From Candidatus Omnitrophota bacterium (lineage in GTDB: Bacteria; Omnitrophota; Gorgyraeia; B26-G9), in NCBI GenBank assembly GCA_043826565.1, contig JBDRPX010000030.1, positions 21,660 to 85,659 of the forward strand: a DNA stretch of 64,000 nucleotides, written 5' to 3'. Of the stretch, positions 7,001 to 55,949 are shown in pieces. The position numbers were made by a program, and so were the translations under genes. The notes below the pieces were generated by a model that was not told where the DNA came from, made no database searches, and saw only the letters and a program-made list of their open reading frames with translations. The first letter of the stretch is position 1; every line of letters begins with the position of its first letter.

Positions 7001-7639
7001 CGGGCAATCCGGAGTAAGCGCTCTTTTTCTATGCGCGTAAACAAATTCATCCTTAATAACCGCTCTCATATCATCAAAGCTTAATTCTTCAATCTTTTGA
7101 ATTTCATGAGAAGTCCGAAACCCGTCATAAGTCATAATAAAAGGAATGCGCGATTCCAATGTCGCGGCCTGAGCAATTAAGCTGATATCCATTACTTCCT
7201 GAACATTTTCCCCGAATAATATCGCAAATCCCGTAGACCGCGCCGCCATAATATCCGAATGATCACAGAAAATTGATAAGGCATGCGAAGCCAAAGTACG
7301 CGCAGTCACATAAAATACCGTGGGGGTTAATTCCCCGGCAATTTTAAACATATTCGGAATCATTAACAGCAATCCCTGCGACGCGGTAAAAGTCGTGGTC
7401 AGGCTGCCCGCGCTTAAAGCCCCGTGCACCGCCCCGGAAGCCCCGCCTTCGGACTGTAATTCCGATACACTCGGGATCTGTCCCCATATATTTTTTTCCT
7501 TATTGGCAGACTTCTCATCAGCCATTTCTCCAACTCCGGAAGAAGGAGTAATCGGATATATCGCGATAACTTCATTAGTCGCATGAGCCACATATGCCGC
7601 AGCCGTATTTCCGTCAATCGCAATTTTTCTTCGTGCCAT
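4043..7639 (-). CDS. nifJ: Pyruvate:ferredoxin (flavodoxin) oxidoreductase, single-chain PFOR
   Basis: 1198 aa. Canonical N-terminus MARRKIAIDGNTAAAYVAHATNEVIAIYPITPSS, a two-[4Fe-4S] ferredoxin domain (CIQCGQCSFVCPHG, CTGCGACVNKCP), and a TPP domain (GGDGWAYDIGYGGLDHV...). Confidence 0.9.
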   Translation of the reverse strand: MARRKIAIDGNTAAAYVAHATNEVIAIYPITPSSGVGEMADEKSANKEKNIWGQIPSVSELQSEGGASGAVHGALSAGSLTTTFTASQGLLLMIPNMFKIAGELTPTVFYVTARTLASHALSIFCDHSDIMAARSTGFAILFGENVQEVMDISLIAQAATLESRIPFIMTYDGFRTSHEIQKIEELSFDDMRAVIKDEFVYAHRKRALTPDCPTIKGTSQNPDVFFQERETVNQYYDKAAGIVQDVMDRFAKQAGRQYKLFEYVGDPQAENIIVIMGSGAGPVEETVKQLNKNGEKVGVVKIKLYRPFSVEHFAKALPQTTKKIAVLDRTKEPGAIGEPLYLDVRSAIGEALESGIAKFKEWPKIIGGRYGLGSKEFNACMVKAIFDNLAQPKPKNHFTVGINDDVTNTSIVTDDCFSAEDPETFRGVFYGLGSDGTVGANKNSIKIIGDLTDNFVQGYFVYDSKKAGSRTVSHLRFGKKPINSTYLIQRANFVACHNFSFLEKYDMLSGADQGATFLLASPYGKDEVWDKIPQEVQKQIIAKKLKFYVIQAYELAEKIGLGARINVIMQTAFFKISNIIPVEKAVEAIKTAIKKTYGDKGEKVVDMNNKAVDAGLAAIEQVAVPEKVTSIITIPAIVPDNAPEFVKNVTASIIAGRGDELPVSAFPIDGTWPTATSQYEKRNIAVQIPEWIPEVCIQCGQCSFVCPHGVIRMKIYDSDLVKKAPETFKSIPASGKGLERKSFTLQVAPEDCTGCGACVNKCPAFEKDESKQPTGKKAINMASQVELRDSEKKNFEFFLSIPDMKVKDLPIGLNTVKGAQLMRPLFEFSGACAGCGETPYVKLMTQLFGDRAMIANATGCSSIYGGNLPTTPYCTREDGKGPAWSNSLFEDNAEFGFGMRLAVDQLSERARALLKEINDAKLCPECTQDCSDILSAEQKTQLQIEEQRDRVAKVKKVLEAKAANPKIKELLGILEYLVAKSVWILGGDGWAYDIGYGGLDHVLASGKNVNVLVLDTEVYSNTGGQMSKATPMGAIAKFAAAGKPLFKKDLAYLAMTYGNVYVARIAMGANPAQVQKAFMEAEAYDGPSIIIAYTHCIAHGINMTKGIDAQKRAVDSGYWVLLRFNPDLEKEGKNPLQLDSKEPTIPLEEYIYQENRFKALKLMNPERAKMLLDLSQAEVKARFKRYQYLAQMDYSKTE

Positions 7640-10800: not shown

Positions 10801-12246
10801 TTAATCAATCACATCCACATTCTTTTTATTCATACCCAACACGGATAATGCCGCCTTGGTTTTTTTAAATAATTCATGCGCGGAACGGATCTTTACGGCC
10901 CGGGATAATACATACCCGGGACGCAGATAAAATCCCCGGTAAAATTTCACCAGCAGCCCGAATAATTCCTCACGCTTAAAATTTTCTTCCCATACCGGAA
11001 GTTTAAATCCGGGGCGCGGCTCCCGGGAAAATTCCTGCCAAAGGTCTGTTTTAATAATACCCTGCTTTAGCCCCTGCGCATAGAACTCTGTGCCCGGATA
11101 AGGAGAAAATATGGTAAAATGCGCGTATGCCGGACGTACTGCTTTAGCCAGATTAAAAGAATCCTGAATATCCGCTAAAGTTTCCGAAGGTAATCCGATC
11201 ATAAAATAAGCCAGAGTATCTATGCCGGCCTGCCGGGTGAGATTGAATGTTTCTTTTACTTTTTCAATCGTAAAACCTTTTTTTATTACTTCCAGCATCC
11301 GGTTATTACCGGCTTCGATCCCGTAATGTATGCCCACACACCCGGCTGTTTTTAAAGCCTTGAGCATTTTTTTCTCAACCATATCCACCCGGGTCCGGAT
11401 ATCCCAGCGGATCTTTAACTTCCGGCGGATGATCTCCTCGCATATCTCAAACACACGTTTCTTATCCACGGTAAAAGTATCATCATAAAACAAAAAATCA
11501 CAAATCCCCATTTCCACACATTCGGCAAGCTCATCAACTACATTTTTCGCGCTGCGCGTCCGAAACACCGAAGTTACCGGAGAAAGCGGACGGTCACAGA
11601 AAGCGCAGTGAAACGGACACCCCCGGCTGCTGATAAATGTTGTCGAAAGCCGGCGCCTACTCAATAAAGAACCGTACTGATTCTTATCCACCATCTCCCG
11701 CGCCGGGAACGTGATCGTATCAATATTTTGTATCGGAGCAAAATCATTTTGCACCACTTTTCCCTGCTGATCTTTATACATCAACCCGGGAATTGTTGGG
11801 TAATTTTCCGGATTATTTATGTTCTCTAAAAAAGTAATAAAAGACTCTTCAGCCTCTCCTTTTAAAACAAAATCCACACCCTTAAGATTAATCGTCTCCT
11901 GAGGATATAAATGAACATGAGTTCCGCCTAAAACAACTTTAGCCTGCGGCAGGTTTTTTTTGACCATGGCAACTGTTTTAAAAACATCGATCAGGGTAAA
12001 AGTCATTGCCGTAATTCCCACAACATCATAAGAATCTTTCCCAAGATACGTTTGCAATTGTTCATATGTCCAGTTAAGCGGCTGGGTATCCAGGATTTTC
12101 ACTTCGAATTTATTATATTTTTTAATTGCCGCGGCCAGATAAAGCAAACCCAGCGGTAAATTATAACCCCGGTGTTTTTCTATAATCGCCGGGTTTTTAC
12201 CGATCAGTTCATTCGCTCGGGGAGGATTGATCAGAAGAATTTTCAT
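10801..12246 (-). CDS. B12-binding-domain radical SAM enzyme
   Basis: N-terminal cobalamin-binding-like domain (MKILLINPP...LGLLYLAAAIKKYNKFEVKILD) and a radical SAM CxxxCxxC motif (SRGCPFHCAFCD). Confidence 0.8.
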   Translation of the reverse strand: MKILLINPPRANELIGKNPAIIEKHRGYNLPLGLLYLAAAIKKYNKFEVKILDTQPLNWTYEQLQTYLGKDSYDVVGITAMTFTLIDVFKTVAMVKKNLPQAKVVLGGTHVHLYPQETINLKGVDFVLKGEAEESFITFLENINNPENYPTIPGLMYKDQQGKVVQNDFAPIQNIDTITFPAREMVDKNQYGSLLSRRRLSTTFISSRGCPFHCAFCDRPLSPVTSVFRTRSAKNVVDELAECVEMGICDFLFYDDTFTVDKKRVFEICEEIIRRKLKIRWDIRTRVDMVEKKMLKALKTAGCVGIHYGIEAGNNRMLEVIKKGFTIEKVKETFNLTRQAGIDTLAYFMIGLPSETLADIQDSFNLAKAVRPAYAHFTIFSPYPGTEFYAQGLKQGIIKTDLWQEFSREPRPGFKLPVWEENFKREELFGLLVKFYRGFYLRPGYVLSRAVKIRSAHELFKKTKAALSVLGMNKKNVDVID

Positions 12247-14520: not shown

Positions 14521-17500
14521 TTAGCTCACCGGGAAAGTAATCGTAAATTTTGTGCCTTGTCCTTCTTCGCTTTCCACGGAAATATCACCGTTATGGTTTT
14601 TTATGATCCGGTAAACAATGGATAATCCCAGGCCGATCCCTCCGTCAGGAGATTTTGTCGTAAAAAAAGGATTAAAAATATTATTTAAACTCTCCTGAGA
14701 AATACCACAGCCGGTATCACTGATCTTTATTTCCACATGTTTTTTATCAGCGGTTAAGGCCGTAGCCACACTTATATCTCCCCCTTCCGGGCACTCTAAG
14801 CTGTCGATAGCATCCCGCGCATTTGAAATAAGATTAACAAAAATCTGCTGCAGCTGGTTTTCATCGCCCTGGATATCCGGCAGGTTTTCGCTAAAATCCA
14901 GGTTTAACCGGATATTGCGCAGCTTAAGCTGCTGGCTGATTAATGATAATGAATCTTCCAATGGTTTATGAATACTGATTTTTTCCATTTTAAATTTGGA
15001 CTTCCGGGAGAAAAAACGGATCTCTTTAATGATCTTATCCATTCTATCAGCTTGTTCTAAAATTCTATTTATATCTTCCCGGAAAGGGCTGTTTTCCTCC
15101 AGATCCATCTGCATAGCCTGGGCAAATCCCTTAATCCCGGTAAGCGGCTGATTTAATTCATGCGAAATACCCGCGGCCATCTGCCCCATTGCCGCCATTT
15201 TCCCGGATTGAATAATCTGTTCCTGTGCTTCCTTTAACTGATTATAAGCCTCCCGAAGTTCCATTTCATTTTTCTTTCTTTCAGTAATGTTCCGCACACT
15301 GGACACAATATACTGTTTATTTTCAAACTCCACATATTTAACATTCGCTTCTATGGGGAAAATCGCTCCGTACTTGGTTTTGCTTCGGCCTTCTATCACA
15401 AACATACCCCGCGCTCTCACCTCTTCGACATGTTTTTCCCAACTTAATTCATCCGGAAAGATCGTTTCAATATCCATAACTCTCATAGCCAGCATTTCCT
15501 TGCGGGAATAGCCGTACAAATCACAGGCCCGGTCATTTAAATCAATAACTTCAGCAGTTTTCGGATCGACGATAAAAATCGCGTCATTGGATTGATCCAG
15601 TAAAGCGCGAAATACTTTCAGATCATTCTCTGACTGCTTACGCTGGGTAATGTCTCGGGCATATAAATTAACATATTCTTCTAATACCGGAGTTATATCA
15701 AATAAATAAACCTTATCACCGCAGACCAATTCTTCCGCGCAATCCTCTCCGGAAGAAAACACTTTGGCGATCAGATCAGTCCAAAAACCCGGGAGTTTTT
15801 TACCTACGGCAGATCCCCATATAGCAAGTAATATTTTTCCGGCGATATTAGAATAGAGCACTGTCCCGTGTTTGTCTATTCGCAATACCGGATTGGGGTT
15901 TTCCTCCGGGAACCTTGCCAAGTCCTTGATTTTTTCCTCTGCCATCTTGCGTTCGGTAATATCCTGAAAAATACCCCGGACTTTTACAACCCTACCGTCT
16001 GTTTCCACAACTTCGCCGATTGCCTGACACCACTTTAAATTTCCCTTTTTTGTTTCAAGCATTGCTTCAAATACCATCGGCTGTTTTGTCTCGATTAAAT
16101 CTTTCATTTTTTTCTTTATCATCTCGCGGTACTCAGGAAGATACCAGTCCACATGCTCATTTGCTCCGGGGATAGGCTCATCTTGCTCAATCTCGACGAT
16201 ATCATAAACCCCTTTAGTCCATACTGCTTTGCCGCCTTTTTCTAAATCCATTTCCCATCCGCCGATCCTGGCAATATCTCCGACTTTATTTAACAATCTC
16301 TCTCTTTCTTTTAAATCATCTTCTATTTTTCTTCTTTCGGTAATATCCTCATGCATCATTATTACATTACGAATTACCCTATTTTTATCCTTAGTTGAAT
16401 ACATATAAGAACGAATAATACGTTTTCTTCCTTTTATATTAGCTGATGAAGTTTTCTGAGGATCATATTCAAACGGCGGCAGAGAAATGGGTTCACCGGC
16501 AAAAGCTCTTTCAATATATGGCATAAACCCCAAACTTTCCACCTGGTCATCGCGAAGAATATTGTATTCTTCGTGTATTCTACTTAATTCTTCACGACTC
16601 ACTCCCCAAAGTTCTGCATAAGCATCATTAACCTGCAAAATCTGTCCCTCAGGGTTCATTATTTGAATAGCCACAGGAGACTGTTCCATAAAAGCACGAA
16701 AGCCTTCTTCGCTTTCCCGAAGCTCTTCTTCGGCTTGTTTACGTTCCGAGACATCCCTGATTACTCTAAGAATTCCCATCGCTTTTGCTTTATCATCAAA
16801 GATCAATGCCGCGGAAGTTTCGCCATAAAAAATACTTTTGTCTTTTCTTATATGCTTGTCCGTAATCTGTTTCATTTTCCCATCAGCCACTAAATTACGA
16901 AAACGCTCCTGCTCCATACCCCAGTCTTCCGGAGAAATAAGTTCCTTAAAAGAATGTCCAATCAATTCATTATCGCGATCATATCCATACAAATCCAAGG
17001 CTTGCGGAGAAAGAAAAGTTAATACTCCCTCCAGATCACTCATAACTATCGCGTCCGGTGAGGTATTTACCAGGGTACGATAAGTCACCTTTTTCTGGGC
17101 CAAAAGAACTGCCGACCTTTTTCTTATTAAAATATTGGCAAATAGTTCTCCAATACACCTAAATCTCGACAATAACTCTTTCGGCCATTCCCTGGCTTTA
17201 GTTATATCATTAATTGAGATCATCCCCAGAGCTGATCCGGCCACAGCCAGAGGGATAACCACAATACCCTTAAGGCCGTTTTTCTTAAATAATTTAAGTT
17301 CCGGCACTGCCGAATCCGGGATATTTTTGGGGTCATTAACCACAATAATTTCTTTTTGTTTTATTTTTTTGATTGTCCAGGAAAAATCTTTTAAGATTAC
17401 CGGCGGCGGATTAATATCGGGAGGAGCATAGTAATGGGTTGTTTCTAAAGAATTTTCGTCTTGAGAAGGAAACTGCGCCAGAGAAATTCGCTCAATTTGC

Positions 17501-17724
17501 AAACACTGCGCGATTTGTTCCAACGCGAAAGTTATTTCCTCGTCAAATCTTTCAACCGGAGCATTAATAAAATTTGTGGAAAGTTCATACAGAAGACTGT
17601 CCAGGGACACCAGCTGCGCCAGTTCAGTATCTGCCTGCAGGATTTTTTTCGCGCTTTGCGCGATTTTCTTTATCGAAGATACCGTTTTCCTTGCCGGCTT
17701 CCTCTTTTTTGTGTTTCTAGACAT
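14521..17724 (-). CDS. Multi-sensor (GAF + several PAS) histidine kinase
   Basis: 1067 aa. C-terminal HisKA (AAGISHELNQPLTGIKGFAQAM) and HATPase_c (ISDTGCGI...GGIGLGLSIVYRIIKNHNGDI). Upstream lie a GAF-like region and at least four PAS-like repeats. Confidence 0.8.
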   Translation of the reverse strand: MSRNTKKRKPARKTVSSIKKIAQSAKKILQADTELAQLVSLDSLLYELSTNFINAPVERFDEEITFALEQIAQCLQIERISLAQFPSQDENSLETTHYYAPPDINPPPVILKDFSWTIKKIKQKEIIVVNDPKNIPDSAVPELKLFKKNGLKGIVVIPLAVAGSALGMISINDITKAREWPKELLSRFRCIGELFANILIRKRSAVLLAQKKVTYRTLVNTSPDAIVMSDLEGVLTFLSPQALDLYGYDRDNELIGHSFKELISPEDWGMEQERFRNLVADGKMKQITDKHIRKDKSIFYGETSAALIFDDKAKAMGILRVIRDVSERKQAEEELRESEEGFRAFMEQSPVAIQIMNPEGQILQVNDAYAELWGVSREELSRIHEEYNILRDDQVESLGFMPYIERAFAGEPISLPPFEYDPQKTSSANIKGRKRIIRSYMYSTKDKNRVIRNVIMMHEDITERRKIEDDLKERERLLNKVGDIARIGGWEMDLEKGGKAVWTKGVYDIVEIEQDEPIPGANEHVDWYLPEYREMIKKKMKDLIETKQPMVFEAMLETKKGNLKWCQAIGEVVETDGRVVKVRGIFQDITERKMAEEKIKDLARFPEENPNPVLRIDKHGTVLYSNIAGKILLAIWGSAVGKKLPGFWTDLIAKVFSSGEDCAEELVCGDKVYLFDITPVLEEYVNLYARDITQRKQSENDLKVFRALLDQSNDAIFIVDPKTAEVIDLNDRACDLYGYSRKEMLAMRVMDIETIFPDELSWEKHVEEVRARGMFVIEGRSKTKYGAIFPIEANVKYVEFENKQYIVSSVRNITERKKNEMELREAYNQLKEAQEQIIQSGKMAAMGQMAAGISHELNQPLTGIKGFAQAMQMDLEENSPFREDINRILEQADRMDKIIKEIRFFSRKSKFKMEKISIHKPLEDSLSLISQQLKLRNIRLNLDFSENLPDIQGDENQLQQIFVNLISNARDAIDSLECPEGGDISVATALTADKKHVEIKISDTGCGISQESLNNIFNPFFTTKSPDGGIGLGLSIVYRIIKNHNGDISVESEEGQGTKFTITFPVS

Positions 17725-17876: not shown

Positions 17877-19328
17877 TTAGTGCTGCACCCCTTCACTGCG
17901 TACAGCTTTAAATAAACTTACCCATAAAATTTTTAAATCAAACAAAAATGACCTTTGCAGCAAATAGTAGTCATCATATTCCACTTTAACAGGAATCGGC
18001 AATTCATCCCTGCCGTTTACCTGCGCCCATCCGGTAAGTCCGGGAATAATTTTATGCACACCCTTTTTTGTCCTCAGCGCAACTAAATCATCCTGATTAA
18101 ATAATGCCGGCCGCGGCCCGACAAAAGACATGTCGCCTTTTAAAATATTAAAAACCTGCGGCAATTCATCCAGGCTTGTCCTTCTTAAAAATTTCCCTAT
18201 GGGAGTTAAAAATTGATCCGGATTTTTCATAAGATGTGTTGCCAACTGCGGAGAATTTAAACACATAGTCCTGAACTTATACATATCAAAAATAGTATTA
18301 TTAATTCCCACTCTTTCGGAAACATGAAATACCGGCCCCTTAGAAGCAATATTTATTAAAAAAGAAATAATAAGCATCGGAATACTCAGAATAATCATCG
18401 CGATAATTGCCGAGATTACATCGAATATTCTTTTAAAGAATTCATAAACTTTTAGACTCTTTGCTCTCTTGTAAAGCTTTACTTCTTGCCTAATCCCTTC
18501 CTGAAATGAAAGCGGTGAAAAGTTAAACATACCCGTAGCTGCTGAATAATCAATTTGCTTATCTTCATTCAAACGCATAATCTGTTCACTCTTTATAAAC
18601 GGTTTTGCTTTTAACATTTCCAATGCCTTAATCCCTAACAGTGATAATCCTACAGGCACATGGACTTTCATTACTTTTCTATTTAAGGCGCCGGAGGTAA
18701 TATCAACAATATCGTTAAAAGTATACGCCGATCCTCCGCTAATATTAAATTCTTTATTTATCGTATCTTTACTGGTTAAGGCATCCACTGTCGCCTTCGC
18801 CACATCATCAACAAAGACCGGCTGCTGCAGATATTCTCCGGAGCCGATAACCGGAAAAACCGGGAAACGATCTAAAAAACGAATTAATCTGATCATGTTC
18901 CGATCATCCAAAGCACCATAGATCATAGTTGGCCTCAAAATTGTCCATTCGAGCCGTGAGCCTTTAATACACTCTTCTGCTTGCTTGCGAATGGCTTTTG
19001 AATCCGCATTTAATCCTGTAAATATGGCGGTTGTGCTAATAAACACAGCGCGCTTAATCCCCGCATCTTCAGCTGCGTGCACAATCTCAGCAGCATGCCC
19101 AAAGCCTAAAGAAGCAAGATTCAGCAGCATATCACAACCGGACATTGCTGTTTCAAGGCTTTGCTTATCAGCTAAATCTCCATACGCTACTTCATAACCT
19201 AATTCTTTTATCTGGCTGATATCGCTAGTCGGTCTTACAAAGCAGCGCACACTGCCCTTACTACTAAGTAATGGCAATACTCTGCGTCCGGTAAATCCCG
19301 TAGCTCCGGTTACTAATATATTTATCAC
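17877..19328 (-). CDS. Fusion protein: N-terminal NAD-dependent epimerase/dehydratase (SDR) domain plus C-terminal polyprenyl-phosphate sugar phosphotransferase (Bac_transf, WbaP/WcaJ-like initiating transferase)
   Basis: N-terminus MINILVTGATGFTGRRV (Rossmann GxxGxxG). C-terminal ~200 aa FKRIFDVISAIIAMIILSIPMLIISFLI...GPVFHVSERVG...YKFRTM...DELPQVFNILKGDMSFVGPRP are the diagnostic Bac_transf motifs. Confidence 0.7.
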   Translation of the reverse strand: MINILVTGATGFTGRRVLPLLSSKGSVRCFVRPTSDISQIKELGYEVAYGDLADKQSLETAMSGCDMLLNLASLGFGHAAEIVHAAEDAGIKRAVFISTTAIFTGLNADSKAIRKQAEECIKGSRLEWTILRPTMIYGALDDRNMIRLIRFLDRFPVFPVIGSGEYLQQPVFVDDVAKATVDALTSKDTINKEFNISGGSAYTFNDIVDITSGALNRKVMKVHVPVGLSLLGIKALEMLKAKPFIKSEQIMRLNEDKQIDYSAATGMFNFSPLSFQEGIRQEVKLYKRAKSLKVYEFFKRIFDVISAIIAMIILSIPMLIISFLINIASKGPVFHVSERVGINNTIFDMYKFRTMCLNSPQLATHLMKNPDQFLTPIGKFLRRTSLDELPQVFNILKGDMSFVGPRPALFNQDDLVALRTKKGVHKIIPGLTGWAQVNGRDELPIPVKVEYDDYYLLQRSFLFDLKILWVSLFKAVRSEGVQH

Positions 19329-19333
19329 TAAAT

Positions 19334-22081
19334 TTAACCTCTACCTGTTTCAGGCACATTGACTGCGGTCACAGCACGCTGTGACCCTACTTTTTGTAAT
19401 AACTGTAAATATTTCAATGCCAATTTTTTTCTATCGTAATTTTTAGCCACAAATGACCTGGCCCTACTTCCCATTGCCTGACACTGCTTGGGATTATTTT
19501 TCAAACCCCGGATACTTTTTATCATTTCCTTGGTGTCTTCCGGAGCAACAATCGAAGCGCCCCCGGATTCCTTAAGAATACCTGCAGATTCACCGCGCAG
19601 ACAAGCAACAATAGGTTTTTCACAAGCCATTATTTCAAAAATCTTAGACGGAATAAATGCACTAAATCCCGGCACATCCTTCAAAGGCACAAGACAAACA
19701 TCAGATAAATTATAAAAATTAATAACCTTTTCTCGGGGCTGGCTAGGAATAAAACTAACATTATTTATATTCCTATCTTTTACTCTTTTTACCAATCTCT
19801 GTTTAACTGCACCTTCTCCGACAAAAAGAAAATGCATATCTTCTTCCTTCTGCAATTCTTCGGCCGCATCAATAACACTGTATAACCCATGAGAAATCCC
19901 ATGCGACCCAATATAGGAAACAATAAATCTATTTTTTGGAATGCCTAGTTCAGAGCGTAAAGACGTCTCCCCATTGCCCGACTTAAACATTTGAAGATCT
20001 ACCCCATTAGTAATTACACACACTTTATTTTCCGGAATTCCTCTTTTTATAATATCCTGGGCAAAGCCATTTGTTACCGGAACAACTGCAGCTGATGCCC
20101 GATACAAAAATAATTCCATGGCTTTCAGCACCCAAATTAAAAACTTATTTTTCAAAACGCCTAATTCAATGAATATTCCCGGCCAAAGATCCCTAACTTC
20201 AAAAACATAAGGAACCCTGCGCAATCGGGAAATTATAAAGGTACTGATAACAGAGAAAAATGCCGGAGAGCTCACCATCAACACATCTGGTTTCTTCCCG
20301 CGAAAAAGACTTAGCACAACAACACTAATCATAAATGAAATATGCAAAAGTGTTCTTTTAAAAAGCCCTCTATTCGGTGTATCAAAAAGCCAGTGCCTCC
20401 ACACCTTAATTCCATCAATCCATTCTTCCATGAATATCTTCCCGCGATATTCTGCAGGAATAACCCCTGTTGGATGATTGGGAAACCCGGTAAGCACGGT
20501 TACTTCATGCCCCTGACTAACCCATTCCTTAGCCATTTCTAAAAGCCTGGCCTGTGGCGCCCCAATCTCCGGATAAAAATATTGGCATATTACATTAATT
20601 TTCAATGACTTACTTTCACTCTCTTTGCTTTTACCCTTAACCGTAAATCTGGCTCTCACCAAGCTGAAAAACATTACTACCCTCTTTATCAGCACCCCAT
20701 CCTTAATCGCCTTAATAACCCATTCCTTAAAAAACATCGGATTAATAAAAAAACATTTTCCAAATCGTGCCTGGAATTTCTTATTTACAAAAAATGAAGA
20801 AAGATAATAGTAAGCATTAAGGATATCCTTCTGCTGCATTTTGTCAGTTATCATAACCGGCTGATAATTATCCATATATGTCGGAGATGTAACATACCGC
20901 GACCAGTCGGTTATCTTTAAATACCCTTTTTCCTTGGCAATCCGGTAAAGCTCAGTCCCGGGAAACGGGCAAGCAATGGAGATCATTACATCCTGCCCAA
21001 TATCTTTTAATAGTTGCGCTGTTTTCTTTACAGAATTTATATCTTCTCCTAAATTCCCCACCATTGTAAATGTCCCGATTTGAATCCCTATTTTTCTTGC
21101 TAATGTATGCACAGCAACTATCTGTTCATCGGTAATTCCTTTTTTAAGCTGCTTGCGCACCTGAGCATCTCCTGACTCCACGCCCACATCAATACGTATG
21201 CATCCGCTTTGTTTCATTACTCGTAGCATTTCTTCATCAATTGTATTTACCCGGGCATTGGCCATCCATTTATACTCTACGTCAGATTCTTTAAGCAAAG
21301 AACATAGTTCCAGAACCCGATCTTTTTTAAGCGTAATCATATCATCTACAAAATCAAACTGGGTCATCCCATAAGTTTTATTTAAAAACTCAATTTCTGA
21401 GAATATATTTTTAGCACTCCGGGCGCGAAAAATCCTCCCAAAGATTGTATGCGAATCGCAAAAAATACATTGGTTAGGACACCCCCGGCTGGAAAGCAAT
21501 GCAAAAGTATGTCCCTGCGCTACAGAAAATACCGAGTATTTATTAACATCTATCAGATCCCATGCGGGAAAGGGAAGTGTGTTAATATCCTCAATCAATG
21601 CGCGCGGCTGAGTAGTAACAAAAACTCCAGCACTATCGGAAAAACAAATCCCCTTTATCTTACTAAAATCATTTTCCCCTTTACTGTAAGCTTTAAGCAG
21701 CTCCAGTAAAGTCAGCTCCCCTTCTCCGATAATCGCACAATCTATATCTGCACATTCCTCTAATGTTTCTTTAGGCAATGCCGAAACATGCGGACCGCCG
21801 ACAAATACAGGAGTCACAAAAGAACACTCTTTTATTAACTCAGCTAAACGTAAACACTCTGTATACTGGTTAGTCATAAATGATATGCCCACAGCCAAAG
21901 GCGTATATTTATCCATAAGCCCACGGATTTCTTCCTCTGTATGCGGGGCAGCATTTAAATCAACAATAACCGGATCAAATCCTTCCTGCCTTATATAAGC
22001 AGCAAGATACGCCAACCCCAGCGGGGGATTCTTCCGCGGATATGTATATTTCGGATAAAAAAGCAATACTGTTTTAGTCAT
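19334..22081 (-). CDS. Fusion protein: B12-binding radical SAM domain (N-terminal) plus GT4 glycosyltransferase (C-terminal)
   Basis: B12-binding region (LGLAYLAAYIRQEGFDPVIVDLN) and radical SAM CxxxCxxC (SRGCPNQCIFCD). After ~residue 490 comes a GT4 domain (INVICQYFYPEIGAPQARLLEMAKEW...HEVTVLTG...). The start is placed at ATG 22079-22081 (AGGA 6 nt upstream) rather than the GTG at 22105 used by the ORF track. Confidence 0.7.
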   Translation of the reverse strand: MTKTVLLFYPKYTYPRKNPPLGLAYLAAYIRQEGFDPVIVDLNAAPHTEEEIRGLMDKYTPLAVGISFMTNQYTECLRLAELIKECSFVTPVFVGGPHVSALPKETLEECADIDCAIIGEGELTLLELLKAYSKGENDFSKIKGICFSDSAGVFVTTQPRALIEDINTLPFPAWDLIDVNKYSVFSVAQGHTFALLSSRGCPNQCIFCDSHTIFGRIFRARSAKNIFSEIEFLNKTYGMTQFDFVDDMITLKKDRVLELCSLLKESDVEYKWMANARVNTIDEEMLRVMKQSGCIRIDVGVESGDAQVRKQLKKGITDEQIVAVHTLARKIGIQIGTFTMVGNLGEDINSVKKTAQLLKDIGQDVMISIACPFPGTELYRIAKEKGYLKITDWSRYVTSPTYMDNYQPVMITDKMQQKDILNAYYYLSSFFVNKKFQARFGKCFFINPMFFKEWVIKAIKDGVLIKRVVMFFSLVRARFTVKGKSKESESKSLKINVICQYFYPEIGAPQARLLEMAKEWVSQGHEVTVLTGFPNHPTGVIPAEYRGKIFMEEWIDGIKVWRHWLFDTPNRGLFKRTLLHISFMISVVVLSLFRGKKPDVLMVSSPAFFSVISTFIISRLRRVPYVFEVRDLWPGIFIELGVLKNKFLIWVLKAMELFLYRASAAVVPVTNGFAQDIIKRGIPENKVCVITNGVDLQMFKSGNGETSLRSELGIPKNRFIVSYIGSHGISHGLYSVIDAAEELQKEEDMHFLFVGEGAVKQRLVKRVKDRNINNVSFIPSQPREKVINFYNLSDVCLVPLKDVPGFSAFIPSKIFEIMACEKPIVACLRGESAGILKESGGASIVAPEDTKEMIKSIRGLKNNPKQCQAMGSRARSFVAKNYDRKKLALKYLQLLQKVGSQRAVTAVNVPETGRG

Positions 22082-22121
22082 AATTATCCTCAGGATACAA
22101 AACACAAAAATCTAATAAATT

Positions 22122-49139: not shown

Positions 49140-50327
49140 TTAAAGCATTAAAGAAGCTTTAACAAAAAATTTGTGATCCACGTAATCAAATGCCGCAAAA
49201 TCAGAATCTCTTTGTTTATACTCATAGCCTGTTTCTAAAGACAGATCTTCCCACATTTGGTAACGCAAACCAATATTTGCGTTCAGGATATCATCTGTTC
49301 TCTTTTTCGTTAAAGAACCCTCGGTGGTTTCATCCGGATATTTATTAAACTGATAAGATGTTCCGGCAATAAACAGAAGGCGTTCTTTTAATTCGTAATC
49401 CAGATTAAGTCCCGCTTTGTTCATTGCATAATAACTATTGGTGCTATATGAAGATTCTACGGAACTTCTTTCCGCATAAATCTTTAAAGTACTACGTTCT
49501 ATCACATCGTACTTTAAATTTGCATGTAAAGTACCGCTGGCAAAATCCTTTTTCCCCGCCTCATCATAATCCGTAGCCTTATAACCAACTTTTACCAGGC
49601 CGGTTAGCTTAGGGGCGATATCCCCTTTTACCCCTACTCGGAACTGACTATATACTGAATCACTATTGGAAGTCGCAACATCATAATCTAATGTGCCGTA
49701 ATTATATTCACAAAGCACAGCTGTTTTCGAGAAAAGCTGATAATAAGCGCTCAGAGTAGTAATATGTTCAAATTTATCTAAACTATCAAGATTCTTATAA
49801 TCATCTCTTATATTCCTGTACCTCAAATCTACTTTTATTGACTCCCTTTCATACCCAATGACCGCACCCGCTGAATTACGCATACGATTTTCCTGTGAAG
49901 TCAATTCTGTATTAGGAGGATCCGCGGTTGTCTGGAAATCCTCATCAAGTTTAAATGAGAAATCATTGGCAAAATTTAAATCTACCTCTGCCCCGGCAGC
50001 CTGCTCTGCCCTATTTAATGCTGTTTCATCATGAAAAGCAAGTAGGTCTGCTTTATAACGGAGCTTTAGCAAAAAATCATCTTCACGGCCCGCAACCAAC
50101 GGCATGTTCGCAGAACAGCCAAGAGATGTAGTTGTAATCCAATCCTGGTTTTCCAGGTTTTCCGGCTCCAGATAAATATTGCTATCATATTTTTCTTCTA
50201 AGGACACAAACGGGTTGATTTCCAGTCTTCCGACGTGAATATTCCCCTTTGCAAATGCCAATATATTCATACCAAAAATTATGGCAATCATCCCCCCTAA
50301 ACAAATCAGCAGTTTTGCTTTTTTCAT
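49140..50327 (-). CDS. Uncharacterised outer-membrane beta-barrel protein at the distal end of the polysaccharide export gene cluster
   Basis: Signal peptide (MKKAKLLICLGGMIAIIFGMNILAFA), then 395 aa with alternating amphipathic beta-strand-like segments. No known motif. Confidence 0.35.
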   Translation of the reverse strand: MKKAKLLICLGGMIAIIFGMNILAFAKGNIHVGRLEINPFVSLEEKYDSNIYLEPENLENQDWITTTSLGCSANMPLVAGREDDFLLKLRYKADLLAFHDETALNRAEQAAGAEVDLNFANDFSFKLDEDFQTTADPPNTELTSQENRMRNSAGAVIGYERESIKVDLRYRNIRDDYKNLDSLDKFEHITTLSAYYQLFSKTAVLCEYNYGTLDYDVATSNSDSVYSQFRVGVKGDIAPKLTGLVKVGYKATDYDEAGKKDFASGTLHANLKYDVIERSTLKIYAERSSVESSYSTNSYYAMNKAGLNLDYELKERLLFIAGTSYQFNKYPDETTEGSLTKKRTDDILNANIGLRYQMWEDLSLETGYEYKQRDSDFAAFDYVDHKFFVKASLML

Positions 50328-50393: not shown

Positions 50394-51155
50394 TTACCGT
50401 GTATGTGGACTAGTTTCCGGAATTTCCGGCTCCGGAGGCTCATCATCAGGAACAAACCCCGCAGCTTCCGGCTCTTCATCAAAAGTCTGAATCGTTCCAG
50501 AATCTGAACTTGTAAATTTAAGAGAAACTGCTTTAGCTAATCTTATAACTTCTCCATCCAGGGCAACAACTTGTATCTCTCCGCGAAGAGAAACAATTTC
50601 TACTTTTCTTGTTTTCGCGTTTACCTTAATTTTTGCAACCGCATCCTGAGGAATCACTGCTTTAACTCCTACGGTAACCACCTCTACTATCCCAGAGATA
50701 CTACTTAATTCTACCACACCAGTCTTATTATTAAAATTAATTCTTACAACTTCTCCTTTTTTTAAATACGTAGTTGAATTCCCGCTGATAACAGTTACCT
50801 TTTCATTAACAACCTTAAAGCTAGCACCGGCAACCCCTTCTTTAATCGACGCGATTAAACGCTCTCCCTCCAGCACTGTCGCCACAGAATCTGCGGCCAC
50901 AACTTGAATAAAACCTTCGGTTGAGGTAATGTCAACCGCACCTTCGAGTAACTCAACAATAGACCCGGAAGCTATCCTTGGTAATGTGTCTGATTCTTCT
51001 ACCTTCATAATGCTGCCATCAGGGGCTGTAATCGTAACCTTACCACTCCTATACATTATTGCAGATTGCACTAATACCGGAAATAAAAGAAATCCAAGTA
51101 TCATTGCTAACCTCACCCTAAAACACTTACTATTGTTTTTGGTTACAATAAACAT
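50394..51155 (-). CDS. Secreted beta-rich protein, paralogue 1 of 2, with an acidic/proline C-terminal tail EPPEPEIPETSP
   Basis: Signal peptide, then a conserved QSAIMYRSGKVTITAPDG start. Roughly half its residues are identical to the 51910..52671 paralogue along the full length. Confidence 0.4.
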   Translation of the reverse strand: MFIVTKNNSKCFRVRLAMILGFLLFPVLVQSAIMYRSGKVTITAPDGSIMKVEESDTLPRIASGSIVELLEGAVDITSTEGFIQVVAADSVATVLEGERLIASIKEGVAGASFKVVNEKVTVISGNSTTYLKKGEVVRINFNNKTGVVELSSISGIVEVVTVGVKAVIPQDAVAKIKVNAKTRKVEIVSLRGEIQVVALDGEVIRLAKAVSLKFTSSDSGTIQTFDEEPEAAGFVPDDEPPEPEIPETSPHTR

Positions 51156-51909: not shown

Positions 51910-52671
51910 TTAAGGCTGATACGGACTCGTTTCCGGAACTTCGGGCTCTGTGGGTTCATCTTCCAAAGGAATCTCACCTGTATCTACCTCATCCTCTTGG
52001 GGCACATCCTTTAAAGTATCATCTCCATCAATATCTGTAGCTTTATCCTCATCAACCTTAATTATGTTACCCGCTGAAGATATAACCTGAATTACTCCGG
52101 ATACCGAAGAAATCTTTACTTTCCTTGTCTTTGCATCTACTTTGATTTTTGCTACACCGTTTTTAGGCACCAAAGCCTGTACACCGCCAGTAGTAGTTGA
52201 GATTACTCCATCAATACTCTTTACCTGAACCGTACCATCCCCTTTATTATAGGTTATCCGGGCAATCTGTCCGGCTTGTATTGTTGTAGCTGTATTTCCG
52301 GACACAACAGTAACGGCATCAGTAATAACTTTAAAACTTACTCCTTTTTCCTTGCCTTTTGCAGATGCAATTAACCGCCCCCCGGGTTTAACCGTAGCTA
52401 AAGATCCTTCGGCAAGAATCTGAACAAATCCATCAATGCCGGTAACATCAATTGCTCCACTAATAATTTCGATTGTAACACCTGAGACTATTTGCGGCAT
52501 GGGATCTTTTTTCCCAACTACTAAAACTGTCCCGTCAGGCATAGTTACTTTTATTTTTCCGCTACGATACACAATAGCAGATTGCGCCCAAACAACATCC
52601 CCCACCAATAAAACTATTAATGCCAAAGATACTACTACCTGTGCTGATTTCCTTAAATACCTATTAAGCAT
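51910..52671 (-). CDS. Secreted beta-rich protein, paralogue 2 of 2 (C-terminal tail EPTEPEVPETSP)
   Basis: Paralogue of 50394..51155, with conserved blocks QSAIVYRSGKIKVTMPDG, RLIASAKG, SFKVITDAVTVVSGN, VAKIKVDAKTRKV. Confidence 0.4.
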   Translation of the reverse strand: MLNRYLRKSAQVVVSLALIVLLVGDVVWAQSAIVYRSGKIKVTMPDGTVLVVGKKDPMPQIVSGVTIEIISGAIDVTGIDGFVQILAEGSLATVKPGGRLIASAKGKEKGVSFKVITDAVTVVSGNTATTIQAGQIARITYNKGDGTVQVKSIDGVISTTTGGVQALVPKNGVAKIKVDAKTRKVKISSVSGVIQVISSAGNIIKVDEDKATDIDGDDTLKDVPQEDEVDTGEIPLEDEPTEPEVPETSPYQP

Positions 52672-52763: not shown

Positions 52764-53915
52764 TTACTCCACCCGCAGCTGCGCCAGGCACTCAATATGG
52801 GCAGTCCGGCAAAACATATCAAAGATCTTGAACCTATTTAAAACCCAATTGCCGGATGTGGCCAGAATTTTTATATCCCGGGCCATTTTAGCCGGATCAC
52901 AGGATATATAATAAATCGTAGTAATATCCTTATTTGCCCCCAGCCAAGCCAGGAACTGTTTATCCAGGCCGTCACGCGGAGGGTCCAATAGCAATATATT
53001 GCTCTGGGCTTTGCTTTTATTAAAAACATCCGCAAATGATTTTTCTACATCACCCTTAAAAAATCCATACCCTTTCAATCCGTATTTTTTTACTGTCTTT
53101 TTCGCGCACTCAATAGACAACCCTTCATAATCTATGCCGACTTTTAATAAATATTCCGGCAGCAAAAACGAGAAAAATCCCGCGCCGCAGTAAACATCAA
53201 AAAACACCGCATCTTTACTTGCCTCAGATAACCACTGATTTAATTCCTCAATAATTTTTAGCGATATATAGCGGTTGCACTGTGAAAATATCCGCGGAGA
53301 AGAAAACATCTCTTTACTATTATAGTTATCCGTAAAAAACTTATCTGTTGTTTTATCTGAACGCCAGACATTCCCCTGATGGTCTTCTTTTAAGGTTACC
53401 CGGTCTTTTTGCGCGTCATTAGACAGCTCCGGTAATATTTTATTTATTGCTTTTGAAGCTATAGAACACTCCTGTATAGGAACAACCTCATTCGAGTTAT
53501 CCCGGCAAAAACCATACCCCTCGGAACTTTTATGCAGAGTAATACTACTGCGGTAATTATAGCAGTCTCCGGAAGCAACAATTTCACTTTTAAAATCCCG
53601 CAGGCCGCCGATTCTCTGCATCAGCTCTTCTACCTGCTTCTTTTTATAAACAAGCTCTTTTTCATAACTAAGATGCTGATATTGACAGCCTCCGCAAATA
53701 CCATAATATCTGCAAACCGGCGCAGTCCGGTCCGGAGAAGCTTTTCGCAAATCGGCAATTGAACCTTTAATATAGCTTGAGGTTTCTTTATCAACCGTAA
53801 AAATAACTTCTTCTCCGGGCAAAGCAAAGTTTACGAAACATATTTTTCCGTCAACCCGGCCCACTCCGGCGCCGCCAAAAGCCAAATCATATATAGTCGT
53901 TGTATATTTCTTCAT
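52764..53915 (-). CDS. 23S rRNA (uracil-C5)-methyltransferase, RlmD/RumA family (TRAM + Fe-S + SAM methyltransferase)
   Basis: N-terminal TRAM-like domain, a Cys cluster CRYYGICGGCQYQH, a class I methyltransferase fold, and the LLDPPRDG motif. Confidence 0.75.
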   Translation of the reverse strand: MKKYTTTIYDLAFGGAGVGRVDGKICFVNFALPGEEVIFTVDKETSSYIKGSIADLRKASPDRTAPVCRYYGICGGCQYQHLSYEKELVYKKKQVEELMQRIGGLRDFKSEIVASGDCYNYRSSITLHKSSEGYGFCRDNSNEVVPIQECSIASKAINKILPELSNDAQKDRVTLKEDHQGNVWRSDKTTDKFFTDNYNSKEMFSSPRIFSQCNRYISLKIIEELNQWLSEASKDAVFFDVYCGAGFFSFLLPEYLLKVGIDYEGLSIECAKKTVKKYGLKGYGFFKGDVEKSFADVFNKSKAQSNILLLDPPRDGLDKQFLAWLGANKDITTIYYISCDPAKMARDIKILATSGNWVLNRFKIFDMFCRTAHIECLAQLRVE

Positions 53916-53968
53916 CGCCCCACTATACTAACATCAAAAAACCTTAACCACAAATAAAAAAGCCCTTT

Positions 53969-55630
53969 CTATTTATCGATCATTTCATGATTTGCCGCAC
54001 CCGGCGGAACCATGGGTATTACGTTTTCTGCATAATGTATCGGGGCATTGACAATACAGCTTCCCGGCAAACATAAGGCCTCGGCTAAAACATCAATCGG
54101 CTCATTTGCTTTGCCCAAATCATAACCGCGCAGACCAAATCCTTTGGCGATCGCGATAAAATCCGGTTTTGCTTCAAAGCGTGAAGCAATATAATTTTTC
54201 TCATAGAAAAATTCCTGCTGTTGGCGCACCAGCCCTAAATGCTCATTGTTCATAATAATAACCGTAATATTTGAGTTTAGTTCCGCTAAAGTAGCCAGCT
54301 CCTGAATGTTCATCAGAAAAGATCCGTCTCCGCTAATACAAATGATACGTTTATCCGGATTTGCCAAGGCCGCGCCAATCGCTGTTGGCAGGCCAAAGCC
54401 CATTGTCCCCAGGCCTCCGGACGTTAACAAAATCCGGGGAGACGGAAACGGATACGCCTGCGCTACCCACATCTGATGCTGTCCTACATCTGTGGTAATA
54501 ATTGTGTCCCGGGCAACCAGGTTAGCCACACTCCTGATCAAATTAAGCGGATGTAGGGGGTCCTTACTCTGCCCTAAAGCCTGGGGATGTTCCTGTTTTA
54601 TCTGCTCAATGTAAGCTATCCATTCTTGGCGGTCATCTTGCCGTATAGCTTGGTTAAGTTCCCTTAACGCATCTTTTATATCTGCAATCAGGGAAATATC
54701 CGCTTTTTTTATCTTATCGATTTCCGAAGGATCAATATCAATATGAATAATTTTAGCCTGCGGACAAAACTTTTTAACATTACCTGTAGCCCGGTCATCA
54801 AAACGCACTCCAAAAGCCAGCAATAAATCCGCTTCACGCAAAATTAAATTCGTATGTTTTGCTCCATGCATACCCAACATTCCCAGATAAAGCTCATCCT
54901 CCGGAGGAAAACATCCCAAACCCATTAAAGTTACGGCAACCGCAATAGAATTCCTTTTAGCAAATTTATAGAGAAATTCATGAGCCTGCGCTTGTGCAAT
55001 ACCGCCGCCGATATAAAGCACCGGGCGCTTTGCCGCATGGATCATATCCGTGATTTTCCTTATCCCTGATATATCAATCTCAGCAGTGTTGATATCCTGA
55101 GAATATTCCGGCCATTGGTCAAACTCAATGATCTCCCTTTGCACATCTTTAGGGACATCAATCAAAACTGGGCCGGGCCGGCCGGATTCGGCAATACTAA
55201 AAGCCTGCGGAATTATTTTAAGCAATTCTTTTGCGCAGCGCGCCATAAAATTATGCTTGGTTATTGAGCGGGATATGCCGCAGGTATCAACTTCCTGAAA
55301 AGCATCGGTTCCGATCACCGCACGGGGAACTTGTCCGGTAATCGCGATGATCGGAACTGAATCTGCTTTTGCATCCGCTATGGCAGTGATCAAATTAGTC
55401 GCGCCCGGGCCGGAAGTCGCAAAACATATTGCGGCTTTTCCCGTAGTGCGCGCGATCCCCTGCGCGATAAATCCCGCACCCTGTTCATGCCGGGCCAGGA
55501 TATGCCGGATACTGCTTTTAGACAAAGCATCATATAAGGGTAAATTCGCTCCGCCGGGAATCCCGGCGATAATTTTAATCCCATAGCGTTCCAGCAGTTT
55601 AATAATAATTTCCGCACCTGAATATTTCAT
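53969..55630 (-). CDS. ilvB: Acetolactate synthase large subunit (biosynthetic, TPP-dependent)
   Basis: MKYSGAEIIIKLLERYGIKIIAGIPGGANLPLYDAL...HEQGAGFIAQGIAR..GPGATNL and a TPP-binding GDGSFLMNIQELATL motif. RBS AAAGGAG lies 8 nt upstream of the ATG. Confidence 0.85.
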   Translation of the reverse strand: MKYSGAEIIIKLLERYGIKIIAGIPGGANLPLYDALSKSSIRHILARHEQGAGFIAQGIARTTGKAAICFATSGPGATNLITAIADAKADSVPIIAITGQVPRAVIGTDAFQEVDTCGISRSITKHNFMARCAKELLKIIPQAFSIAESGRPGPVLIDVPKDVQREIIEFDQWPEYSQDINTAEIDISGIRKITDMIHAAKRPVLYIGGGIAQAQAHEFLYKFAKRNSIAVAVTLMGLGCFPPEDELYLGMLGMHGAKHTNLILREADLLLAFGVRFDDRATGNVKKFCPQAKIIHIDIDPSEIDKIKKADISLIADIKDALRELNQAIRQDDRQEWIAYIEQIKQEHPQALGQSKDPLHPLNLIRSVANLVARDTIITTDVGQHQMWVAQAYPFPSPRILLTSGGLGTMGFGLPTAIGAALANPDKRIICISGDGSFLMNIQELATLAELNSNITVIIMNNEHLGLVRQQQEFFYEKNYIASRFEAKPDFIAIAKGFGLRGYDLGKANEPIDVLAEALCLPGSCIVNAPIHYAENVIPMVPPGAANHEMIDK

Positions 55631-55660: not shown

Positions 55661-55698
55661 TATAAAAAAACCTCTGTCGGCTCTCACCGGCAGAGGTT
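55661..55698 (-). terminator. Rho-independent terminator 2, the promoter-distal attenuator hairpin, 30 nt upstream of the ilvB RBS
   Basis: Minus strand: ACCTCTGCCGGTGAGAGCCGACAGAGGT followed by TTTTTTTATA. Confidence 0.6.
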
Positions 55699-55741
55699 AA
55701 TAAAAACAATAAAGCCCCTGCCGATTCCCACCGGCAGGGGC
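55699..55741 (-). terminator. Rho-independent terminator 1 (attenuator), directly downstream of the leader peptide ORF
   Basis: Minus strand: AGCCCCTGCCGG-tgggaat-CGGCAGGGGCT (11-bp stem) followed by TTATTGTTTTTATT. The 5' arm CCCCTGCC can alternatively pair with GGCAGG...CCGTAGGGG inside the leader ORF (antiterminator). Confidence 0.6.
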
Positions 55742-55758
55742 TTGAATTAGTACACTTA

Positions 55759-55866
55759 TTAGTACATAGGCATACCCCTACGGCAAGAACCTGCCACGAC
55801 GACAAGTACTAATAAGACAGCAATATTATTGAATTCCCTGATCTTTTGCTTCATTATTCTCACCAT
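55759..55866 (-). CDS. ilvB leader peptide rich in branched-chain residues: MVRIMKQKIREFNNIAVLLVLVVVAGSCRRGMPMY
   Basis: Small minus-strand ORF (35 codons from ATG 55866, or 31 from ATG 55854 with a GGTGAG SD-like sequence). It has 11 consecutive I/A/V/L codons and ends 18 nt before terminator 1, the classic ilv attenuator layout. Confidence 0.5.
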   Translation of the reverse strand: MVRIMKQKIREFNNIAVLLVLVVVAGSCRRGMPMY

Positions 55867-55949
55867 AAGGTTATTGTTAACTCCTATTTGTTAGAAGTAT
55901 ATCATGAACTTTTTAAATTCGCAAGTTTTTGCATTATTTTATTATCAAA

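Follow-up and report, generated by a model that had tools for sequence, protein, structure and literature searches.

A candidate ribosome-mediated attenuator with one leader peptide and two terminators ahead of ilvB in Candidatus Omnitrophota

How might a bacterium of the Omnitrophota match transcription of its acetolactate synthase gene to the supply of amino acids? The question is raised by a 64-kb stretch of DNA (the window), part of a Candidatus Omnitrophota metagenome-assembled genome (MAG), in which the gene ilvB is preceded by a short Val/Leu-rich open reading frame (ORF) and two related terminator hairpins, T1 and T2. The initial annotation had read this arrangement as a leader-peptide attenuator and had named two points worth following up: whether the lineage uses attenuation at all, and the duplicated terminator. 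We found that the sequence-level predictions of this reading hold and that the element is conserved in relatives, and we put at roughly 0.8 the probability that it is a ribosome-mediated attenuator that adjusts ilvB transcription to how much charged tRNA for Val and Leu is available, with a slight contribution of Ile. Coordinates are positions within the window, the locus is read on the minus strand, and its parts are listed here in the order of transcription.

3' end at 55950, minus strand: patatin-Omp85 gene, directly upstream of the leader
55924-55896, minus strand: putative leader promoter of the sigma-70 type, TTGCGA and TATACT spaced by 17 nt, assigned from the sequence and from relatives
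55870-55858, minus strand: segment 1, CCUUAUGGUGAGA, which holds the leader GGUGA box and can pair with segment 2 (anti-antiterminator)
55866-55759, minus strand: leader ORF in its long version, as called, 35 codons, MVRIMKQKIREFNNIAVLLVLVVVAGSCRRGMPMY
55854-55759, minus strand: leader ORF of 31 codons plus stop, MKQKIREFNNIAVLLVLVVVAGSCRRGMPMY, with the start set by comparison with relatives
55824-55792, minus strand: control codon run I-A-V-L-L-V-L-V-V-V-A, 11 consecutive branched-chain or Ala codons
55789-55775, minus strand: segment 2, UUCUUGCCGUAGGGG, the conserved box and 5' strand of the antiterminator
55743-55712, minus strand: T1 (segments 3 and 4), AAGCCCCUGCCGGU-GGGA-AUCGGCAGGGGCUU, 14 bp including 9 G-C pairs
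55711-55699, minus strand: interrupted U-tract of T1, UAUUGUUUUUAUU, read from the sequence
55698-55669, minus strand: T2 (segments 5 and 6), AACCUCUGCCGGU-GAGA-GCCGACAGAGGUU, 8 bp, a C.A mismatch and 4 bp
55643-55638, minus strand: ribosome-binding site (RBS) of ilvB, AAGGAG, read from the sequence
55630-53969, minus strand: ilvB, 553 aa, large subunit of a biosynthetic acetolactate synthase, the regulated gene

In the mechanism that we propose, transcription would start from the promoter at 55924-55896, and a ribosome would load at the GGUGA box and AUG 55854 and translate the 31-codon leader. Under starvation the ribosome would stall at the eight Val/Leu codons (codons 13–20), leaving segment 2 (55789-55775) free. 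Segment 2 would then pair with the emerging 5' arm and loop of T1 (the antiterminator, 2:3), blocking T1, and the freed 3' arm of T1 could pair with the near-identical 5' arm of T2 (4:5), disabling T2 and allowing read-through into ilvB. When amino acids are replete, the ribosome would reach the stop codon and occupy the 30 nt that separate segment 2 from segment 3; T1 and T2 would both form, and transcription would terminate at ~185 or ~225 nt, longer than the ~150-nt leader transcript that had been expected. In an untranslated transcript segment 1 would pair with segment 2 (1:2), which would also favor termination. Amino-acid-dependent read-through and kinetic control are both what we infer from these features of the sequence.

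The regulated gene encodes a protein that passes the TIGR00118 model (689.6 bits, cut-off 538); its best NCBIfam model was PRK08155, where 840 bits fell just under the cut-off of 870. An IlvB identical in sequence exists as an NCBI entry from a Candidatus Omnitrophota MAG, and the Logan assembly of SRR26275510 contains the same contig. The window IlvB was 54–55% identical to enterobacterial IlvB, while most others among the matches listed were at 43–47%. An ilvB of the acetohydroxyacid synthase (AHAS)-I type therefore lies directly downstream of the leader, as in the ivbL-type family.

A dedicated promoter appears to lie between the patatin-Omp85 gene and the leader. It has a TG extension at 55904-55903, and transcription is predicted to start near 55889. 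In close relatives (66–72% IlvB identity), the ~500 nt ahead of ilvB hold a promoter at a matching position with a TGnTATA-type -10 (TTGACA-17-TATATT). The 35-codon ORF of the initial annotation does exist, but the in-frame ATG at 55854, which leaves 31 codons, is more likely to be the true start, because the Shine-Dalgarno (SD)-like GGUGA box 5 nt ahead of it is conserved (4–5 nt from the AUG in relatives) and ATG 55866 is ACG in relatives. The 11 consecutive branched-chain or Ala codons reported earlier are present. Of these, 5 stand for Val, 3 for Leu and 1 for Ile, so that Val/Leu/Ile make up 9 of 10 consecutive codons, and the last Val is codon 20 (55797-55795). Among the 873 window ORFs of 15–60 aa, three contain at least nine V/I/L in a 10-residue window, and the leader ORF is the only one of the three with terminators behind it and a branched-chain amino acid (BCAA) gene downstream. 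The ORF has its own RBS, sits between promoter and structural gene, and carries a run of codons for the end products.

Between the leader ORF and ilvB lie the two intrinsic terminators. The T1 hairpin has a calculated energy of –27.9 kcal/mol (–28.5 kcal/mol when folded with short flanks) and is followed by the tail UAUUGUUUUU. The leader stop codon had been placed 18 nt before this hairpin; 18 nt is the distance to the CCCC run, and the T1 stem itself begins after 15 nt. T2 (–17.6 kcal/mol) has a U7 tail at 55670-55664, and a simple terminator scan overlooked it owing to its C.A mismatch. A second, related terminator ahead of ilvB is thus indeed present, although its U-tract ends ~20 nt before the RBS and not 30 nt as first given. 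The gap between the two hairpins is 13 nt, and no second ORF lies in it, so the window does not have a tandem layout with two leaders.

The 270-nt leader folded with z = –6.1, a value that none of 200 shuffles equaled. Segments 1 and 2 formed a 13-bp helix in the minimum-energy folds (duplex –19.9 kcal/mol, reached by 0/300 shuffles). The antiterminator joins UUCUUGCCGUAGGGG (55789-55775) to CCCCUG(C)CGGUGGGAA (55740-55725) in 15 bp with one bulge, with an energy of –18.4 kcal/mol as a duplex and –27.2 kcal/mol as a hairpin; this pairing of the 3' part of the leader ORF with the T1 5' arm had been predicted, and it extends further than claimed. When segment 2 was shuffled, the observed 1:2 and 2:3 duplex energies were attained in 0–3 of 300 trials. 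Segment 2 can pair with the T1 5' arm and loop and would so exclude T1. Folding of the minus-strand leader, which had been suggested as a check, yielded 1:2, 2:3 and T1 as alternative structures.

The position of the Val/Leu run relative to these structures was examined with a ribosome represented as a mask that spans –15 to +13 nt relative to the A site, on a transcript cut at the T1 loop, before segment 4. With the A site on codons 13–20, the probability of the 2:3 core was 0.6–0.95; with the A site anywhere from codon 22 through the stop codon, it was at most 0.11. In this model the last Val codon is the last stall position that still permits the antiterminator, as the attenuation model requires.

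The same elements were compared in relatives. Locus scans of genomes and metagenomes with the IlvB protein gave relatives of at most 63% identity; those at 66–72% came from a protein search followed by contig look-ups, and they include Omnitrophica MAGs. In them the leader ORF with its Val/Leu/Ile run is kept, as are antiterminator and terminator. They share four parts: a segment 1 containing the SD box, a segment 2 with the box "YGCCGUAGGG", and terminator arms 3 and 4, and their terminators are visibly homologous to those of the window (CCCCUGYCGGYG...CCGRCAGGGG). The conservation of leader ORF and structures that had been proposed as a check is therefore found, and by sequence this lineage, Omnitrophica relatives included, appears to carry leader-peptide attenuators.

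Two complete units of leader plus terminator were present in 6 of the 9 relative architectures read, in which L162–L166 count as one. Examples besides L162–L166 are L169/L170 and L171/L172, both pairs named Omnitrophica, and L178; L098, on a more distant metagenome contig of low G+C, is also tandem. A single unit was seen in L174 (Candidatus Auribacter), L176 and L167. In the tandem relatives, each second unit has a 2:3 antiterminator pairing of its own. The window leader corresponds to unit 1, as seen for leader 1 of L169 (MRTKNHYKAIFSLVVGVVVSAFCRRGLANK, common sequence UGCCGUAGGGGU). In ten unit-1 sequences, 97.7% of the cells of the T1 helix were paired, with compensatory changes at 5 pairs. 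The antiterminator was 90.6% paired, compared to 38–56% when the partners were slid, with 4 compensatory pairs, and 7 of the 9 unit-1 relatives also show the 1:2 pairing (equaled by no more than 6/300 shuffles). The mutually exclusive antiterminator and terminator of the initial annotation thus have behind them both the alternative folds and compensatory changes in each helix.

The layout of promoter, leader and terminator stays with ilvB although the upstream genes differ (TonB receptor, HD-domain protein, MetRS, ClpB). This bears on another reading of the hairpins, as terminators of the patatin-Omp85 gene or as repetitive extragenic palindromes (REPs) that go with a REP-associated transposase gene close by (58752-58159). 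T1 and T2 are related palindromes, and a homologue of the REP-associated tyrosine transposase (RAYT) does lie 2.4 kb upstream, but the promoter separates the upstream gene from the leader, and homologous hairpins accompany ilvB beside unrelated upstream genes. Neither a pattern search nor the covariance model described below found further copies of T1 or T2 in the window. A dispersed repeat of the REP/BIME (bacterial interspersed mosaic element) kind was rejected on the absence of other window copies and on the conservation of the hairpins with ilvB elsewhere. We consider it highly improbable that the hairpins belong to the upstream gene or to REPs; the possible refutation raised at the start, that they merely end the patatin-Omp85 transcript, falls with the intervening promoter and with an element that tracks ilvB in relatives.

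The leader peptides of close relatives resemble that of the window: leader 1 of L169 ends in ...VVGVVVSAFCRRGLANK and the window leader in ...VLVVVAGSCRRGMPMY. Depending on the relative, the segment-2 box is translated in one of three frames; in several relatives it contains the stop (Ser-Pro-stop), and in the window it reads Cys-Arg-Arg-Gly; it is therefore the RNA that is conserved and not the peptide. A reader of the window alone might take the ORF for a real small membrane peptide or lipoprotein, with a hydrophobic stretch followed by a Cys, and the hairpins for nothing more than its terminators, as ...VVAGSC... has the look of a signal peptide and the gene caller predicted the ORF as a gene. 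AGSC is, on the other hand, a poor lipobox, the L169 counterpart SAFC is a worse one, the relatives keep the box and not the peptide tail, and the ORF always lies between promoter and ilvB, all of which leaves a functional small peptide scarcely credible.

We built a covariance model (R1) from the ten close relatives only, with no enterobacterial sequence in it. In the 64-kb window it matched this site alone, at 75.7 bits; the reverse-strand echo scored 32.6 bits and the next match 23 bits. Among the loci retrieved it matched within ~150 nt upstream of ilvB, on the right strand, in Leptospira, Spirochaetia, Zoogloea, Verrucomicrobiota and Enterobacteria, and the enterobacterial match is the annotated ivbL-ilvB leader of E. 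coli. Leaders of the E. coli type scored weakly (24–28 bits, E ~0.002–0.05), always at the right place and on the right strand. Val-rich leader ORFs were found 75–140 nt upstream of ilvB in most relatives of at least 52% identity, among them Enterobacteria (ivbL), Verrucomicrobiota, Spirochaetia, Leptospira, Zoogloea and Binatia; this ORF scan took ATG starts only and overlooked leaders starting with GTG or TTG as well as the loci L082 and L083. The 7-mer form of the segment-2 box was ~4-fold enriched upstream of ilvB. In the cross-phylum alignment, which was fitted by the model, the terminator was 98.4% paired, with compensatory changes at 10 of 13 pairs. The antiterminator in the window register was 72.6% paired, compared to 32–53% with partners slid, and 15 of 500 shuffles reached this value.

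The ivbL-ilvBN attenuator of E. coli (peptide MTTSMLNAKLLPTAPSAAVVVVRVVVVVGNAP), which responds to Val and Leu, shares with the window a Val/Leu-rich leader ahead of an AHAS-I-type ilvB. The RNA box is GCGCCGUAGGG in E. coli and UUGCCGUAGGGG in the window, with GCCGUAGGG in common, and the terminators, 25–35 nt after the box, have CCCCnGCCGG in common: in E. coli CCCCGCCGGCG...CGGGCGGGG-U run, and in the window CCCCUGCCGGUG...CGGCAGGGG. The two systems differ in that E. coli has one terminator and the window two. The E. coli box encodes Ala-Pro-stop, whereas the window reads it in another frame and its ORF is six sense codons longer. Segment 1 overlaps the leader SD box in the window, unlike in E. 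coli ivbL, and ilvN follows ilvB in E. coli but not in the window. Common descent of the window leader and the E. coli ivbL-type leaders seems likely on these resemblances, though the model score is weak.

Leader-peptide attenuators are usually considered fast-evolving and lineage-specific. Our data suggest that the ilvB attenuator RNA has been conserved along with its gene across phyla. We tentatively propose, at rather less than even odds, that the ivbL-type attenuator is an old cassette attached to AHAS-I-type ilvB, by descent or transfer, in at least five to six phyla (Proteobacteria, Spirochaetota, Verrucomicrobiota, Omnitrophota, and the Candidatus Auribacter and Binatia lineages), that it is often doubled, and that the window shows a tandem sensor collapsing to one leader that governs two terminators by a relay (2:3, then 4:5). 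Our searches found no literature on such attenuators in Omnitrophota, and the window would represent a known kind of regulator in a lineage where it was previously undescribed. It would extend a textbook mechanism to an uncultured phylum without genetics, and would leave the understanding of how attenuation works unchanged.

Leader-peptide control of ilvB has been documented beyond Proteobacteria (PMC1262725, PMC11857589, PMC5794164); the actinobacterial and Firmicute leaders likewise bring about premature termination of ilvB, and differ from the window in leader sequence and structure. One of these cases serves as a warning. The similar-looking leader of Streptomyces coelicolor ilvB is reportedly no classical attenuator, in that altering its candidate control codons left regulation unaffected (PMC1262725). 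A non-classical control could apply to the window as well, through a protein or other signal acting on the terminators, or through an ORF acting mainly on translation or mRNA stability. Equilibrium folding of the full transcript, which never favors the antiterminator, would fit such a control. Three observations speak for the classical alternative: the Val/Leu run sits exactly where a stalled ribosome would free segment 2; the same design is annotated as an attenuator leader peptide in E. coli ivbL; and Rfam found no T-box or other known RNA family in the window, though it did detect a T-box at a related locus (L083). We regard a non-classical control as improbable, and ribosome-mediated attenuation as the better account of the locus.

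Several further points nonetheless weigh, together with the S. coelicolor case, against ribosome-mediated attenuation. Full-length equilibrium folding with ribosome masks did not separate the states, as length-limited folding did: the terminators won in every ribosome scenario (T1 0.86–0.98, T2 0.95–0.97), so that wherever the ribosome is placed the predicted equilibrium favors termination, and the choice would have to be kinetic, as in classical attenuators. With no ribosome on a transcript reaching to the T1 loop, 2:3 had a probability of 0.93 and 1:2 one of 0.03, and default termination of untranslated RNA would hinge on 1:2 forming first. In the trp model the stalled ribosome covers segment 1. 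In the window a stalled ribosome is predicted to leave segment 1 uncovered, ~40–70 nt upstream of the stall sites. The T1 tail is weak, its U-tract being interrupted (UUUAUUGUUUUU). The covariation comes from 10 related sequences, a small set that may be taken as supportive and not as conclusive, and the cross-phylum set appears to back 2:3 only moderately, on a model-fitted alignment. Finally, the window ilvB is without a following ilvN, whereas all close relatives read have one.

What, then, is the second terminator for? In the tandem relatives (L162–L166, L169–L172, L178, L098), which resemble the window in promoter type and in the design of unit 1, the last terminator lies ~30–40 nt before the ilvB RBS, and, unlike in the window, T1 and T2 are separated by a further leader ORF that has an antiterminator of its own. 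Most simply, the unusual layout of the window would be that of a collapsed tandem attenuator in which leader 1, T1 and T2 were kept and the second leader was lost. The duplicated terminator would then be a remnant of an ancestral tandem pair that persists in relatives, although the deletion history is itself a reconstruction from sequence. T2 could be orthologous to T2 of the relatives or could have been copied locally from T1; few bases are diagnostic, and these conflict: the GGUG loop start is T1-like, and GAGAG-CCGACAG is T2-like. Among the single-unit relatives, L167 (69% identity) shows after unit 1, at ~1600-1690, another small ORF, MGKLKDETLKFDPELLVLIYITG, whose RBS is strong and which lacks a terminator; it ends 39 nt before ilvB. 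This layout is another degenerate form of the tandem, and its second ORF might act on translation.

The arrangement left in the window may still work as a whole. Since T1 and T2 are near-copies, 11 bp can form between the T1 3' arm and the T2 5' arm (4:5 hairpin –16.7 kcal/mol, compared to –17.6 kcal/mol for T2), and one antiterminator could thereby relay to both terminators. The free fold, with T1 and T2, had –55.5 kcal/mol. With 2:3 enforced, the best fold (–52.3 kcal/mol) contained 4:5 and also had the T2 U-tract paired, whereas 2:3 plus T2 gave –46.1 kcal/mol. The T2 base responsible for the internal C.A mismatch pairs perfectly with the T1 3' arm, which is suggestive, though a single observation. 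We would give such a relay a little less than an even chance of operating.

Alternatively, only T1 would be regulated, with T2 an unregulated leftover that constantly lowers ilvB expression or is decaying, and 4:5 a by-product. In relatives a complete leader ORF separates T1 from T2, so that T2 once had a sensor of its own; T2 is mismatched and weaker than T1 (–17.6 versus –27.9 kcal/mol); and the loss of ilvN from the locus suggests local erosion. Adjacent copies of any hairpin are complementary in the manner of 4:5, and this complementarity, automatic from the duplication of T1/T2, need not have been selected, which counts against the relay. Set against this, a U7 tract and a 12-bp stem stand before an intact ilvB, where a constitutive terminator would be costly; once 2:3 has formed, 4:5 is favored over T2 by ~6 kcal/mol; and the mismatched T2 base finds its perfect partner in the T1 3' arm. 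A T2 without function in regulation therefore seems to us unlikely, though a serious alternative.

A relay of this kind has a counterpart in the his attenuator of Salmonella and E. coli, where hairpins A:B, C:D and E:F compete with B:C and D:E. The predicted window relay likewise has one leader peptide and a chain of 1:2, 3:4 and 5:6 versus 2:3 and 4:5. The two differ in that the last his hairpin alone is a terminator, while 3:4 and 5:6 are both terminator-like in the window, and the sequences are unrelated. For the tandem layout of the relatives there is a precedent in the mgtCBR leader of Salmonella, in which two short ORFs each control a stem-loop choice in tandem attenuators (PMC3641672); the signals differ, the sequences are unrelated, and the window has one ORF. 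If the relay holds, two independent decisions would have become one decision with a fail-safe double stop. The relatives, as natural tandem leader-peptide attenuators, and the window, as a derivative with one sensor and two terminators, could be compared with each other.

The loss of ilvN calls for separate comment. In the 66–72% relatives, ilvB is followed by an ilvN that encodes an ACT-domain protein of 95–104 aa (truncated to 72 and 81 aa by contig ends) and that overlaps the ilvB stop codon or begins within a few nt. In the window no ilvN lies directly 3' of ilvB; after a 53-nt gap there is instead an rlmD-like methyltransferase gene. At 53915-53990 (minus strand), ilvB ends in ...AUCAUGAAAUGAUCGAUAAAUAG, about where the overlapping ilvN of relatives starts, and a candidate ilvN ATG there meets a stop two codons on. 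The sequence after the ilvB stop, AAAGGGCUUUUUUAUUU, resembles the 3' half of a terminator without its 5' half, and ilvN may have been deleted here, with this region left as the scar.

Three genes downstream of ilvB, 51873-51457 (minus strand) encodes a 138-aa protein with two ACT domains. As the first strong terminator past ilvB (51434-51411) lies directly behind this gene, the two may be co-transcribed. As a candidate for IlvN the ACT-pair protein was rejected, since its similarity to the relatives' IlvN is merely generic to ACT domains (25% identity). The protein may serve as a substitute regulatory subunit or be unrelated.

Searches of Rfam at E up to 10 gave no relevant match for the window leader (T-box, Leu/His/Thr/Trp leaders and others), and thus no T-box features. 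The E. coli ivbL leader (L102) was likewise unmatched, although the same database recognized the T-box of L083, and the missing match for the window therefore says little. The covariance model could serve to annotate ilvB leaders, which at present stand outside Rfam. At L083 (61% IlvB identity, 30% G+C) a T-box occupies 1806-2050 (Rfam, 120.7 bits) in place of a leader peptide, and at L082 (63%) a T-box-like motif, GGGUGGUAGCAC, was seen by eye, with no Rfam match at the gathering threshold. Judged from these sequences, the same ilvB clade has swapped its attenuation mechanism between lineages. In unrelated phyla (L003–L017, L085–L103), ilvB leader peptides often end in Pro-stop (GNAP, AVAP, MLAP, VCAP, RFSP, RSPP, KAPP), and these Pro-stop codons fall within the conserved segment-2 box. 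Such ends may stem from a constraint on the RNA, from a ribosome kept on segment 2 by slow termination at Pro-stop, or from both.

The genes around the locus are described for orientation. The RAYT/IS200-like transposase homologue (58752-58159, minus strand) shares 23 nt with the start of the patatin-Omp85 gene; no REP copies matching it were seen in the window. Two paralogous ORFs of 253 aa (51910-52671 and 50394-51155, minus strand) are 43% identical to each other and have no Pfam or NCBIfam match. Both proteins have a hydrophobic stretch at the N-terminus and end in an acidic region rich in Pro and Glu (...EPEVPETSPY and ...EPEIPETSPH), and their genes adjoin a gene for an EpsL/PEP-CTERM-type outer-membrane protein (49140-50327). 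A long same-strand block follows at 8136-49000 (minus strand), by appearance an exopolysaccharide/PEP-CTERM-type cluster. Within it, all on the minus strand, lie genes for a 923-aa fusion of radical SAM and glycosyltransferase (19334-22105), for a glycosyl-phosphotransferase of the priming type (17877-19328), for a histidine kinase with PAS (14521-17724) and for B12-binding radical SAM enzymes (10801-12246). A pyruvate:ferredoxin oxidoreductase is encoded at 4043-7639. Of the 40 ORFs of at least 180 aa in the window, 38 are on the minus strand, and the GC skew is negative throughout.

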